Source of the DNA: a virus
Reading direction: 5' to 3' (one strand)
Virus record (IMG/VR): IMGVR_UViG_3300031669_000002
Coordinates: 64,001 to 128,000 of that record
DNA length: 64,000 nt
The translations under genes were made by a program, and so were the position numbers. Position 1 is the first letter of the stretch, and every line of letters begins with the position of its first letter. The notes under the pieces are model-generated. The model made no database searches. It saw only the letters and a program-made list of their open reading frames with translations, and was not told the DNA's origin. Positions 8,732-47,228 of this stretch are shown piece after piece.

Positions 8732-8795
8732 GCTGATATAGTCCTTTTATATTAGAGCAGTTGGGATTGCACTCCGCGAACTGCACCTTTATTTA
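8732..8795 (-). promoter_or_regulatory. HEG leader, copy A: TAAATA promoter plus conserved hairpin
   Basis: TAAATA-aaggt-GCAGTT-cgc-GGA-gtgcaa-TCC-c-AACTGC-tcta...aaagga..atcagc-ATG; the promoter overlaps the gp46 stop. Confidence 0.75.
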
Positions 8796-10562
8796 TCCAT
8801 TATCTCCTACCCATGAGGTGTAACCGTTTTCCTTAATCACACGAAGTATATTAGATACGCGACTAGTTAATTCATCTTTGTGTGAGATAAGCCAAATACT
8901 CTTGTCTGTTTCTCTAACCATTCTCTTTAAAATTGACATTGAGCTTTCTACACCGCTCGAGTCCATACCAGAGTCGATAAGTTCGTCAATTATAAGCAAG
9001 TTGATTGGCTCATATAGTGATTCATAAACATCTCTAAATGCTAAAGACAGCGCCAAGATAACTCGAGTCATTTCACCTCGAGATAAATTGTCAAAGTCAA
9101 GATCTCTGCCTAATTCTTCAATCATAACAGTTAAGTCATTTTGGAACACTACCGTGTGAGGTAACCCAATCTTATCCAAGTAAGTTGATAGTCGAGAGTT
9201 TAAGTAAGTTAAATTTTGATCAATGATGCGCTTACGAATAAAGCTATCCTTGTTAGTTAGCAACTTGAGCAATAGTTCTTGATGCTCTTTGCGACGAGTC
9301 ACTTCATTGATGATAGAATAGTCAATCTCTGCCAACGCAGTAGTTTCCATTTCGTGTATCTGATCAGTGTATGGATTTTCAGTGGCAATCTTGCTTTCGA
9401 GCTGTTTCTCTAGGTGCCCAACAGTGGTCTTATGATGAGTAGCATCCTCAAACTTTTTGTATGAGGTTTTTGGTCGGTTTCCAAGTTCTCCTATCTCCAA
9501 GACTGCTTCTGTCAGACCATCAACATACGCTATAAGCTCAATGACCTTATCTCTATGCTCTTGTAGAGAGGCATTTTTTGAATCAAGAAGAAGTTGTTGC
9601 CTATCATCGTGAATGTCCTGCCCACAAGCGTGACAGGTATGATTTTCTAACTGATCAATGTCCGGCAAAAGTTTATCAATCCCCTTTTGCTCACGCTCAA
9701 GATCTTTCTTAGCCCGAGACAGCGTTGTCTCTAAGTCTGCTATGTCTTTCTGTTTCTGTAAATATTTTTCAAGTGCTTTGTGATTATCTATTTCTACGTC
9801 AATGTCAACCTTCAATAAGTCTTCAAGTTGATCTGTAAGGTCTTTGATCTCTTCTTCAAACTTCTTTTCCCATATTCTTTGACGACGACGCAAAGATTCT
9901 ACTTGCTCTTCAATTTTCTTATTAGCTTCTATTAAAGCAGCAATGCGATACTCTTCGCTTGTGATTAGATCCTTTGAAATTCTAACTTGTTCCTTAAGCG
10001 TATCTGCTTTTTCACTAAGCATCGTAATGCCAAGTAACTGTTCGATAATGCTACGCTGATCACCTGCCTTCATCTTAAGGAACGGTTCGGTGTAGGTATT
10101 CAGTGCGAGAACATGTCTGAACATATTGTGTGACATGCCAATAATTCTGTTTATCTCATGTTGTGTTTCACGAGAGTCGCCCTGTGAGTCACTATCCTTC
10201 GACTCAAACGCAACATTGCCCTTATAGAGCAACAATACGCCGGGCTTGCGGCCACGCTCAATGCGGTAGGCAATACCATTCTTCTCAAACTCAACAGTAA
10301 CTATCATACCCTTGCCGTTAGTGAGATTTATAAGATTATCTTTTTTGATATCCGATATGGCAGTCCCATATAGAGCGTAAGAGAGCGTTTGTAAGATCGT
10401 GCTTTTACCTGTGCCGTTTCTGCTACCAGCATCATCTCCGCCGAGATCTAAATTCTCACCTAAGACCAGTGTTAGGTCATTGCGGTCGAGATTGATTGCT
10501 TGTGATACGTTTCCTACAGATAGAAAATTCTTCGCTGTGATTGATTTTAGTTTCAGTGCCAA
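8793..10562 (-). CDS. gp46: Recombination ATPase, SbcC/Rad50-like (T4 gp46)
   Basis: Walker A NGTGKST, long coiled coil with CHAC zinc hook, signature LSRGE, Walker B LLIIDE, and ISH motif. Confidence 0.93.
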   Translation of the reverse strand: MALKLKSITAKNFLSVGNVSQAINLDRNDLTLVLGENLDLGGDDAGSRNGTGKSTILQTLSYALYGTAISDIKKDNLINLTNGKGMIVTVEFEKNGIAYRIERGRKPGVLLLYKGNVAFESKDSDSQGDSRETQHEINRIIGMSHNMFRHVLALNTYTEPFLKMKAGDQRSIIEQLLGITMLSEKADTLKEQVRISKDLITSEEYRIAALIEANKKIEEQVESLRRRQRIWEKKFEEEIKDLTDQLEDLLKVDIDVEIDNHKALEKYLQKQKDIADLETTLSRAKKDLEREQKGIDKLLPDIDQLENHTCHACGQDIHDDRQQLLLDSKNASLQEHRDKVIELIAYVDGLTEAVLEIGELGNRPKTSYKKFEDATHHKTTVGHLEKQLESKIATENPYTDQIHEMETTALAEIDYSIINEVTRRKEHQELLLKLLTNKDSFIRKRIIDQNLTYLNSRLSTYLDKIGLPHTVVFQNDLTVMIEELGRDLDFDNLSRGEMTRVILALSLAFRDVYESLYEPINLLIIDELIDSGMDSSGVESSMSILKRMVRETDKSIWLISHKDELTSRVSNILRVIKENGYTSWVGDNG

Positions 10563-10565
10563 GGT

Positions 10566-11582
10566 TTATAGATTCCTATAGATTGATAATAAAAGATTAG
10601 GATCATAATGTCCGTTGCTGATTGCAGCAAGTTCTTCAGATACAATTTGATCAACTGATAAGAACTCGATTGATCCTGGTTGGGTATCAGCACCCTCTAA
10701 AACTTTTTTAACGGGTAGCAGTGTTATCTCACGAAGATTGTAGGTGCTGCCAAATGTTTCTTTGATAAATGTTGCCTCCTCGTAACTGATGTCGATATCA
10801 ATATTTACCCTCACGTGCATAGTGGGTTTTAAAATAGTTTCAGCATTCTGTAAAAGATTGCTAAGATCAAATACACGATACCTCGGTTGATCAGACCACG
10901 AGAAATATTCTGGCTCTTTGCCCCACTCAAGGATCATCGCACCGCGGGCATCATCGCCGGCATCACCGTAGTTATGCGGAAAACAGTTTCCAACATAGGT
11001 AATATTTTTGCCATGCTGACGCTTATGGAAATGTCCGCTAAAGACAGAACCCATACCTGCAAAGTGGTCTTGCTGAATCTCTCCGTTGTCTGGCATCTTT
11101 ATCATTGCGTTCATGTAGAAGTGCGGCAATTCAAAGTGACCAAAGCAATACTCAGCACTAACCTTCTGAATCTTCTTGTGATCATCATGAACAAGCCATG
11201 GCATGATCGATACATCGCCTTCTTTAAAAAAATCATTGACAATGTGAATGTTGGGAATGTGCTTTGCCCACTCAACGCTTTGGACATCTCGCTTTTCACG
11301 ATAAAATAAATCGTGATTGCCCGGAATGAAAAATGTTTGTGAGAAATTCTCGCTTAGTAGTTCAAGTCCATGAACAGCATACGACATCGTTTTGAGATTC
11401 ATGCTGGCACGATTGTTATGGTAGTCGCCGAGGAACAAGCACGTCTCACACCCTTTCTCTTTGCCTAACTCTACTGCCCATTTGATAAAATTGATACAAT
11501 CATTGTTGTGGACATCGCTGTTGGACTTTAGTCCGAAGTGCAGGTCTGTGAAAACCATTGCTTTCTTAAATAGATTTGCCAT
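10566..11582 (-). CDS. gp47: Recombination nuclease, SbcD/Mre11-like (T4 gp47)
   Basis: Metallophosphoesterase motifs DLH, GD, GNHD, GHF and GHFH; adjacent to gp46. Confidence 0.93.
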   Translation of the reverse strand: MANLFKKAMVFTDLHFGLKSNSDVHNNDCINFIKWAVELGKEKGCETCLFLGDYHNNRASMNLKTMSYAVHGLELLSENFSQTFFIPGNHDLFYREKRDVQSVEWAKHIPNIHIVNDFFKEGDVSIMPWLVHDDHKKIQKVSAEYCFGHFELPHFYMNAMIKMPDNGEIQQDHFAGMGSVFSGHFHKRQHGKNITYVGNCFPHNYGDAGDDARGAMILEWGKEPEYFSWSDQPRYRVFDLSNLLQNAETILKPTMHVRVNIDIDISYEEATFIKETFGSTYNLREITLLPVKKVLEGADTQPGSIEFLSVDQIVSEELAAISNGHYDPNLLLSIYRNL

Positions 11583-11681
11583 TTATTTCCAGTCTTTAAG
11601 TTATGTTACTATTTTATGCTATCTTGCCATCAAGAATCAAACTTTTCGGCAGATCATTTGTCCAGAATGCTAAATATGAAT

Positions 11682-46363: not shown

Positions 46364-46722
46364 GCTATTACATTACAATTGATTCAACAAGTCGTATTAC
46401 TGGTCTTTACACTAATGAACCTGGATATCCAGATTTACCAAGTAATCCAATACTAATAAGTGATACAGATGCAGAGACACTAAAAGCGGGGTTTACTGAA
46501 TTTGCGTATGTAAATAACGCAGTAGTTTCTTCTCCTTTATCTGCAGAAGCAAAAACTTACAGTTATGTAGAAGATAGAGCAGCAGCATATCCGCCCATAC
46601 AGGACTACATAGATGGTATTGTTAAGGGAGATACTGCACAGGTTCAGACCTACATAAATGCTTGCTTTGCAGTTAAAGCAAAGTACCCTAAGCCTAAACA
46701 GCCGCCCCGTCGCTTAAAGTAA
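46360..46722 (+). CDS. Tail fibre assembly / chaperone-like protein
   Basis: RAAAYPPIQDYID...AVKAKYPK motif, directly after the fibre gene. Confidence 0.5.
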   Translation: MSYYITIDSTSRITGLYTNEPGYPDLPSNPILISDTDAETLKAGFTEFAYVNNAVVSSPLSAEAKTYSYVEDRAAAYPPIQDYIDGIVKGDTAQVQTYINACFAVKAKYPKPKQPPRRLK

Positions 46723-47154
46723 TTTTTCTAGAGTAGCGATCTTATCAATGATGACTTTGAATTTGAAAGTTCGCCAAACTCCAGGAATTAACGGTTTGGG
46801 ATGATCGATGAGGTTAGTCCAAGCATACCCGCGATGTTCGTCATTAAGTGTAGGAATAAATTCATCGTCGACTGATATCAAAAAAGTATAATAGACAAAC
46901 GTGTGGTTGTCAGAAGTAAAGGTTTCAATTGGTATTGTTTTTCTCTGACTTAGATCAACTCTAGTCTCTTCAATAATTTCGCGATATAGGGCCTCAGTTA
47001 TCCGTTCCCCCTCATTAATTTTTCCGCCCGGAATTCCCCAACTACCAGAATACTTTGCACCATCCCGCAGTAGGAATAGATACCGCTTAGTGTTTTTGGC
47101 ATAAACGAGAGCACCAGCTGCTTCTAATAGGTCTTTTTTCTTAATATCTTCCAT
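46714..47154 (-). CDS. NUDIX hydrolase; probable start 47154
   Basis: Nudix box GGKINEGERITEALYREIIEET. Confidence 0.9.
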   Translation of the reverse strand: MEDIKKKDLLEAAGALVYAKNTKRYLFLLRDGAKYSGSWGIPGGKINEGERITEALYREIIEETRVDLSQRKTIPIETFTSDNHTFVYYTFLISVDDEFIPTLNDEHRGYAWTNLIDHPKPLIPGVWRTFKFKVIIDKIATLEKLL

Positions 47155-47162
47155 AATTTGCA

Positions 47163-47228
47163 TAAATAGTAATGTAGTTCGCGGAGCAGCAACTCCCAAC
47201 TACTCTAACATAAAAGGACTATATCAGT
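47163..47228 (+). promoter_or_regulatory. HEG leader, copy C
   Basis: TAAATA-gtaat-GTAGTT-cgc-GGAG-cagcaa-CTCC-c-AACTAC-tcta...aaagga..atcagt-ATG; compensatory change relative to copies A and B. Confidence 0.75.

Follow-up and report, generated by a model that had tools for sequence, protein, structure and literature searches.

Results

Three copies of a leader cassette and their nuclease genes

The window analysed here, 64,000 nucleotides in length, comprises bases 64001-128000 of the 178-kb IMG/VR virus record IMGVR_UViG_3300031669_000002, estimated to be about 51% complete, and it carries three copies (A, B and C) of a leader of about 80 bp, each at the head of a homing-endonuclease gene. 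This leader is a portable cassette, probably for two-strand control, that stands before free-standing homing-endonuclease genes across a large uncultured clade of jumbo T4-type phages. The source phage is evidently a member of that kind, because of its gene set and its sigma-factor relatives: the window proteins include a gp55-like late sigma factor, gp46/gp47-like SbcCD and a gp15-like tail sheath stabiliser. Compared by late sigma factor, the cultured phages closest to it are PA5oct, a Pseudomonas jumbo phage (45% identity), and the RaK2-like phages. NTAAATA motifs lie 25-60 nt upstream of many structural genes of the phage, as T4-type late promoters would.

Cassette A occupies 8720-8796 on the minus strand, which is its gene strand, and scores 85.6 bits with the covariance model described below. 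Reading along that strand, a late-promoter motif ATAAATA (8796-8790) and a spacer (8789-8785) lead into hairpin 1 (8784-8757), in which GCAGTT, CGC and GGA are answered across the loop by TCC, C and AACTGC. There follow TCTA (8756-8753), hairpin 2 (8752-8736; ATATA, loop AAAGGAC, TATAT), CAGC (8735-8732), the ATG (8731-8729) and a TATTTAT box (8726-8720). The gene so headed (8021-8731, minus strand) encodes a 236-aa GIY-YIG/NUMOD3 homing endonuclease and lies downstream of a gp46/SbcC-like gene, whose TAA stop (8795-8793, minus strand) falls within the cassette promoter. Elsewhere in the cassette family, the upstream open reading frame (ORF) ends within NTAAATA(A) in 23 of 57 co-directional contexts.

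Cassette B (15473-15552, minus strand; 67.9 bits) has the same order of parts, with ATAAATA at 15552-15546, a 6-nt spacer, hairpin 1 at 15539-15509, TCTA at 15508-15505, hairpin 2 at about 15503-15490, CAGC at 15488-15485, ATG at 15484-15482 and TATTTAT at 15479-15473. Its GIY-YIG nuclease gene (14768-15484, minus strand, 238 aa) has been inserted immediately before the gp55-like late sigma gene (13858-14766, minus strand). Nucleases A and B share 46% identity, and their first 29 residues are nearly identical.

Cassette C lies on the plus strand (47162-47240; 88.9 bits): ATAAATA 47162-47168, spacer 47169-47173, hairpin 1 47174-47203 (GTAGTT, CGC and GGAG, loop, then CTCC, C and AACTAC), TCTA 47204-47207, hairpin 2 47208-47224, CAGT 47225-47228, ATG 47229-47231 and TATTTAT 47234-47240. 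The nuclease gene (47229-47929, plus strand) is of the HNH family (HNH_3). Relative to three homologues (L119, L117 and L083) it has a 1-nt deletion after codon 6 (MCIYCG), so that the cassette ATG at 47229 is out of frame with the HNH ORF itself, which runs from 47231 to 47929 with a GTG start. The frame break could mean that the gene is a pseudogene, that translation starts at the GTG, or that the sequence contains an error. Nuclease C opposes both of its neighbours, the gp15-like gene and a NUDIX gene (46714-47155), which are on the minus strand.

The initial annotation of the window had placed leaders at these three sites, before two GIY-YIG genes and one HNH gene, and had drawn their stems, including a compensatory C-G to T-A change in copy C; all of this is borne out. 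The core pattern AGTTCGC-N8-20-CAACTRCTCTA has three matches in the window and none in 100 dinucleotide-preserving shuffles, and a covariance-model search of the 178-kb record returns copies A, B and C only. A fourth homing endonuclease of the window, a 355-aa SegE-type GIY-YIG protein (6617-7684, minus strand), is without the cassette, which is thus not used by every nuclease of the phage; its gene has only a GTAAATA motif, 25 nt upstream of the ATG. Elsewhere in the window a single ORF of 4902 aa (27138-41846, plus strand) is very large even among jumbo phages.

The cassette family

Two pattern scans of IMG/VR placed the three leaders in a large family. Scan 1, with the hairpin-1 pattern, found at least 119 loci, of which 110 unique copies were tabulated; scan 2 was anchored on TCTA...CAGCATGNNTATTTAY only, leaving hairpin 1 and the promoter unconstrained, and found at least 120 loci. 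Combined, the scans give at least 193 distinct copies, and hundreds of unrelated homing-endonuclease genes in uncultured giant T4-like phages are headed by the cassette.

The order of parts is constant over about 80 bp: NTAAATA, spacer, hairpin 1, TCTA, hairpin 2, CAGC, start codon and TATTTAY box. Hairpin 1 has a 6-bp outer stem opened by G, a C-R-C internal loop (CGC in 154 and CAC in 39 of the 193 copies) facing one unpaired base (C in 181, T in 12), and a 4-bp inner stem with its loop. Hairpin 2, of 5 bp, stands between TCTA and CAGC and holds the Shine-Dalgarno sequence within its loop and 3' arm. The start codon comes 0-2 nt after CAGC and is followed by TATTTAY. Hairpin 2, and the box 5 nt after CAGC as a nucleotide-level element, had both escaped the initial annotation. 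Its placement of the predicted late start on the first base of hairpin 1 holds, the spacer between NTAAATA and hairpin 1 being 5 nt in 136 of the 193 copies. As in late-promoter systems of the I-TevI/mobE type, NTAAATA is suitably positioned and a gp55-like sigma factor is encoded, and the motif would be active as a late promoter. By crude ORF calls, the gene upstream of the cassette is divergent in 67 copies and co-directional in 57.

Covariation of the hairpins

The conserved, covarying structure is real. In the scan-1 set the inner stem of hairpin 1 and hairpin 2 both covary, and the pair flanking the fixed pattern is T-A in 102 of the 110 copies and C-G in the other 8, with no mismatches. 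A covariance model built from 24 gap-free copies recovered 106 of the scan-2 copies, and in the resulting alignment all 15 base pairs show double changes, as one would expect of the RNA structure that the initial annotation proposed to look for in a larger alignment. Paired cells make up 91.9% of that alignment, against 62% after shuffling, and its covariation score of 0.764 falls to 0.204 on shuffling and to 0.09 or less with slid partners. Even in the scan-2 set, where hairpin 1 was unconstrained, 40 distinct complementary outer stems occur.

Does the 3' arm of hairpin 1 also have a second partner? The initial annotation suggested a two-state translational switch, in which that arm would alternatively pair with the start region (UGCU with AGCA, or UACU with AGUA), the base before the ATG varying with the stem. 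The three window copies are compatible with such a switch; in the 110-copy table, all 8 stems with G have C before the ATG, and all 6 variants with T before the ATG have A in the stem. Only those 14 copies fit, however. The other 96 combine A in the stem with C before the ATG, an A/C mismatch within a 4-bp helix, and the association lies within the expectation from the margins, with only about 0.4 G/T combinations expected. The supposed linkage is thus absent, the agreement of the window copies being a sampling chance; we reject the switch and leave it almost no credence.

The strand on which the fold is selected

On which strand does the fold matter? The non-Watson-Crick pairs bear on this. 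On the gene strand the outer stem has 23 A.C and no G.U pairs, and hairpin 2 has 72 A.C and 5 G.U in the scan-2 set and 65 and 9 in the scan-1 set. Counted by distinct stem types, which protects against repeated counting of inherited changes, A.C exceeds G.U by 13 to 0 in the outer stem and by 16 to 2 in hairpin 2. Copy selection scored G.U as a pair but not A.C, so that any bias opposed the observed asymmetry. Since an A.C on the gene strand is a G.U on the opposite strand, the selected fold is placed opposite the gene.

Folding energies point the same way. The antisense strand is the more stable in 178 of 193 copies, with a mean of -17.1 against -12.7 kcal/mol (z -2.09 against -1.17). Copy A folds at -17.0 kcal/mol (z -2.4) on the antisense and -11.2 kcal/mol (z -0.45) on the sense strand, and copy C at -19.8 (z -2.6) and -10.2 kcal/mol (z +0.26). 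Read as UAGA and GCUG on the antisense strand, the invariant flanks add C-G, U-A and G.U pairs to hairpin 2, whereas on the sense strand the third of these flank pairs (TCTA/CAGC) is an A/C mismatch; sense hairpin 2 is missing from the minimum-energy folds of copies A and C. Because of the wobble asymmetry and the folding energies, an antisense RNA fits the data better than a structured mRNA leader.

A mirror-image promoter motif and a predicted antisense RNA

What might transcribe the opposite strand? The TATTTAY box is the reverse complement of RTAAATA and so mirrors the late promoter. In 80 of 103 copies 5 nt separate it from the preceding CAGY, a spacing equal to that on the sense side. 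This position is kept at the nucleotide level, as the box occurs in all three reading frames, with an offset from the start codon of 3 (17 copies), 4 (10) or 5 (71), and is translated accordingly as M-x-I-Y, M-Y-L or M-I-F; the HNH proteins too begin M-C-I-Y or M-T-I-Y. With the mirror box 5 nt from CAGC, antisense transcription is predicted to start at the G that faces the C of CAGC, 0-2 nt short of the start codon, a geometry in which the transcript would overlap the ribosome site and the start codon.

For copy A the predicted antisense RNA spans 8732-8796 on the plus strand, from a mirror promoter ATAAATA (8720-8726, plus strand), a 5-nt spacer and a predicted start at G8732; it would form two hairpins and then a U-rich tail complementary to the sense promoter. 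The corresponding predicted RNA of copy B is 15485-15552 on the plus strand (mirror promoter 15473-15479, plus strand; predicted start G15485), and that of copy C is 47162-47228 on the minus strand (mirror promoter 47240-47234, minus strand; predicted start 47228). The first hairpin of such an RNA carries an anti-Shine-Dalgarno sequence in its loop. Behind the antisense form of hairpin 1 (mean -9.8 kcal/mol), about 6 of the first 11 nt are U; these derive from the A-rich sense spacer and in part from the complement of the sense promoter. In the spacer, A makes up 65-69% at positions 1-3, whereas generic TAAATA sites have 32-41%, and position 5 is T in 99% of copies. Antisense hairpin 1 with its tail looks like a modest intrinsic terminator. 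On the gene strand no U-run follows hairpin 1, and a sense-strand intrinsic terminator was rejected.

From these features we propose the following mechanism. On the gene strand the cassette would supply a gp55-type late promoter (NTAAATA, 5 nt, start at G), a Shine-Dalgarno sequence and a start codon, and codons 2-4 would contain the mirror promoter. Late in infection, gp55-directed polymerase would fire from both motifs. The antisense RNA of about 70-80 nt would start at GCUG and fold into two hairpins, the second of which, with the U-rich tail (complementary to the A-rich spacer and to the sense promoter), would serve as terminator. By pairing with the nuclease mRNA leader over the Shine-Dalgarno sequence and start codon, it would limit translation of the nuclease both late and on read-through transcripts. 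That a cis-antisense RNA of this length covers the ribosome site and represses the nuclease seems to us on balance probable, by a modest measure. Leaders A and C have only 2 differences in about 30 positions around the ribosome site, so that cross-repression within the source genome is conceivable.

Another possible use of the outward promoter is suggested by copy C. Its mirror promoter points along the strand of the gp15-like and NUDIX genes, with the NUDIX start 84 nt downstream, and late transcription of the NUDIX gene may come from it; with this geometry, and the frequent divergent upstream genes of the family, the outward promoter may more generally feed a neighbouring gene.

Portability and insertion sites

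The initial annotation held that the leader is a portable cassette found before unrelated nuclease families, and the family bears this out. Sorted by N-terminal motif, the ORFs downstream of the 110 scan-1 copies fall into three GIY-YIG subfamilies (37, 26 and 5), other GIY-like proteins (3), two HNH subfamilies (14 and 9) and others (3), with decayed or absent ORFs in 13. Pfam assigned NUMOD3 to 34, HNH to 13, HNH_5 to 10, HNH_3 to 9, GIY-YIG to 4 and SegE to 3 among 96 of these ORFs. Variants of hairpin 2 are unlinked to nuclease class, the ACGCT type being present before six classes, and the cassette is therefore portable. Does it serve as a binding site for the nuclease, as was also suggested? 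The variable, covarying stems and the diverse DNA-binding domains of the nucleases disfavour this, and a nuclease-specific operator of the kind known for I-TevI was rejected since the headed nucleases differ in fold as well as in DNA-binding modules.

The sigma-gene locus shows what is gained with the nuclease. Among 80 related sigma-gene loci a cassette is nearby at only 2, both with a nuclease ORF; it is missing at the other 78, where the nuclease is absent, and the empty site of one relative (L228) has no trace of it. Just upstream of cassette B lies a 15-codon ORF, MARVVNYLNIRFSDK (15545-15592, minus strand), with a good Shine-Dalgarno sequence of its own and a stop codon that overlaps the cassette promoter. 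This ORF duplicates the N-terminus of the sigma factor, whose gene now starts at TTG 14766 as (L)ARVQNYLNNKD, and the two versions have synonymous differences. The short ORF is evidently the displaced original 5' end of the sigma gene, marking the left edge of the insertion of nuclease B plus cassette, and the insertion looks as if it had supplied a recoded copy of the sigma target downstream. As the displaced start lies next to cassette B, the cassette forms the very edge of the inserted unit, and it travels with the nucleases.

In another relative (L280, 797-1480) a cassette heads a 185-aa nuclease in the same intergenic region between the structural gene and the sigma gene, at a different point. 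There the sigma gene's sigma-70-like promoter (TTGACT...TAGTAT) is found at the 3' end of the nuclease ORF. This case points to independent insertions at what may be one hotspot.

Discussion

Weighing the explanations

Several observations weigh against a repressing antisense RNA. Copy B folds about equally on the two strands (-18.1 kcal/mol antisense, -18.8 sense). The sense hairpins also form (96% paired, most pairs being Watson-Crick) and may have a role of their own. At copies A and C a simple terminator scan made no call; the U-runs in the tails of the window copies are interrupted, and G-C pairs number only 2 in the outer stem. With a divergent upstream gene in about half of the contexts, the outward promoter could serve the neighbour instead of giving a short RNA, or in addition to it. 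A strand-specific hairpin in single-stranded DNA would yield an equal wobble asymmetry. Finally, a weak, diverged cassette (39.5 bits) stands before a GIY-YIG gene of the cultured Pseudoalteromonas phage vB_Psh_XG4 (PP712099.1 56131-56220; L225 217-306; labelled 'UNVERIFIED_ORG'), and this copy keeps hairpin 1 with CGC/C but has TGTA for TCTA, CACC for CAGC and no TATTTA box.

Might the cassette then simply be a structured 5' untranslated region of a late nuclease mRNA, with no functional antisense RNA? Hairpin 1, at the 5' end, would block 5'-end-dependent decay or bind a phage RNA-binding protein, and hairpin 2 would present the Shine-Dalgarno sequence. In favour of this, the promoter spacing makes the first base of the stem +1 in most copies, more than 90% of cells are paired in the sense hairpins, conservation extends to the C-R-C/C internal loop, and the XG4 copy retains hairpin 1 without a mirror promoter; in addition, seg43(25) of Aeromonas phage 25 has a stable hairpin just upstream of an unsequestered ribosome site (PMC2988022). 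Sense hairpin 1 may have a role at the mRNA 5' end. As a full account, however, the structured leader strikes us as unlikely, though a serious contender, for it leaves unexplained the wobble tolerance on the antisense strand only, the shuffle-level sense folds of copies A and C, and the fixed distance from CAGC to TATTTAY in three frames. Another sense-strand idea is a temporal mask of the I-TevI/mobE type, a mechanism established for T-even endonucleases (PMC2988022). On read-through RNA, AUAAAUA would pair with the UAUUUAU of codons 2-4 and close a three-way junction over the ribosome site, while the late RNA, starting past the 5' arm, would be translated. In most copies the heptamers complement each other exactly (87% of cells paired), their pairing probability exceeds 0.5 in 34% of copies, and the Shine-Dalgarno sequence has an unpaired probability of 0.51 in read-through RNA and 0.62 in late RNA. 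Yet this change in accessibility is small, and the mask would depend on a 7-bp helix, all A-U, closing a multiloop, with a mean probability of 0.32 and one near zero in the three window copies. Its terminal pair is without covariation (43 of 108 unpaired), about half of the copies, including B and C, have a divergent upstream gene and hence no read-through, and the antisense wobble bias goes unexplained; we regard the mask as improbable.

Could the selected strand be DNA rather than RNA? A template-strand hairpin might act in replication or recombination, marking the edge of the mobile unit, or the cassette might be a homology patch for shuffling. G.T is the best-tolerated mismatch in DNA hairpins too. 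The cassette's position at the extreme edge of the insertion and the shuffling of its variants among nuclease classes would suit such a module, and exchange mediated by small regulatory cassettes has a precedent in the PeSLs of T4-type phages, discussed below (PMC4122927). We find no associated recombinase, however, the mirrored promoter geometry belongs to transcription, as does the U-rich tail, and the loops hold the ribosome site or its complement; a single-stranded DNA module is, in our estimate, a long shot. Repression by an antisense RNA remains the reading that we prefer.

Implications of a possible common brake

Homing endonucleases need low, well-timed levels to persist in phage genomes, and the known T4 solutions are gene-specific hairpins and autorepression. 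We tentatively put forward a broader proposal, which we hold to be possible and short of probable: the cassettes would encode an undescribed family of cis-antisense small RNAs, transcribed from mirror-image late promoters, and these RNAs would put one shared brake on hundreds of free-standing homing endonucleases, drawn from different catalytic families, in the abundant jumbo phages of fresh water. As a plug-in module, the cassette would give any nuclease ORF a late promoter, ribosome site, start codon and repressor, and its outward promoter would also restore transcription of the displaced neighbour gene. If so, an exchangeable cassette with these parts would be a new regulatory layer for selfish genes, and would explain the ready domestication of unrelated nucleases in one phage clade. 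A large and well-covarying RNA family, with hundreds of members outside Rfam, would join the few known phage antisense RNAs. The mirrored-promoter design would also be a compact form of two-strand coding, in which the complement of each promoter serves as codons or as terminator tail on the other strand.

Comparison with known systems

Is the cassette already described elsewhere? The initial annotation had proposed an Rfam search, and with the window as query no described motif was matched: there were no matches at the gathering score, and permissive thresholds around copy C gave chance-level matches only (E 5-8). A BLAST search of the leader against 50,697 GenBank phages found only chance-level 28-nt matches inside cyanophage coding regions, and megablast of the locus found no match. 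The covariance model had no match in cultured phages PA5oct, Phosso, EJP2, S-SRM01, S-N03 and RN05-S; besides the diverged XG4 copy it gave only a chance-level match, in B23. The kind of control is already known, namely antisense or RNA-structure control of a mobile-element nuclease; this cassette is without a match in Rfam or in the literature searched.

The closest analogy in design comes from a transposon. In IS10/Tn10, the RNA-OUT/RNA-IN system has an outward promoter just inside the 5' end of the transposase gene, from which comes a short antisense RNA with a stable fold that covers the ribosome site and start codon of the mRNA. The cassette likewise has an outward promoter motif inside the 5' end of the gene and a predicted folded antisense RNA over the ribosome site and start codon. 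It differs from IS10 in its phage late promoter, its homing endonucleases, the two hairpins of the RNA and the terminator tail made from the sense-promoter complement, features that we read from the sequence.

Among phages, a late promoter together with an RNA hairpin controls the T-even and Aeh1 homing endonucleases I-TevI, I-TevII, I-TevIII, segB and mobE (reviewed in PMC2988022). Like those genes, in which RNA structure over the ribosome site limits expression, the cassette-headed nuclease genes lie among host-phage genes, each with a late-type promoter of its own immediately before it and RNA structure around the ribosome site. Unlike those, however, the cassette promoter lies upstream of both hairpins, so that late transcripts retain them and lose only the optional 7-bp A-U helix; the ribosome site is without stable sequestration on the sense strand, as its unpaired probabilities above indicate; and the fold is selected on the opposite strand. 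The T-even hairpins are gene-specific, whereas one conserved cassette is common to hundreds of genes of different families. The classical mechanism thus does not fit the cassette well.

The literature searched on antisense RNA or a shared leader of phage homing endonucleases yielded, besides the T4 hairpin work, only CfrI and the PeSLs. CfrI is an antisense RNA seen experimentally over a homing-endonuclease gene of the T4-like cyanophage S-PM2 (Millard et al. 2010, as described in PMC2984593 and PMC12197685). The cassette RNA, a prediction, would share with it the overlap with a homing-endonuclease gene in a T4-like phage. By these descriptions CfrI is about 225 nt long, links psbA to F-CphI and is locus-specific, whereas the cassette is portable and repeated. 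PeSLs are small composite promoter/stem-loop cassettes of T4-like phages, with early sigma-70-type promoters, that flank ORFans in hyperplastic regions and are points of exchange (PMC2839356, PMC4122927). We find no sigma-70-like promoter at copy C and one near copy A, inside the nuclease ORF, at about chance expectation. As a small, conserved composite motif, repeated in the genome beside unrelated genes, the cassette resembles the PeSLs; unlike them, it has promoter motifs of the late type on each strand, extends over the start codon and first codons of the gene that it heads, and is tied to homing endonucleases.

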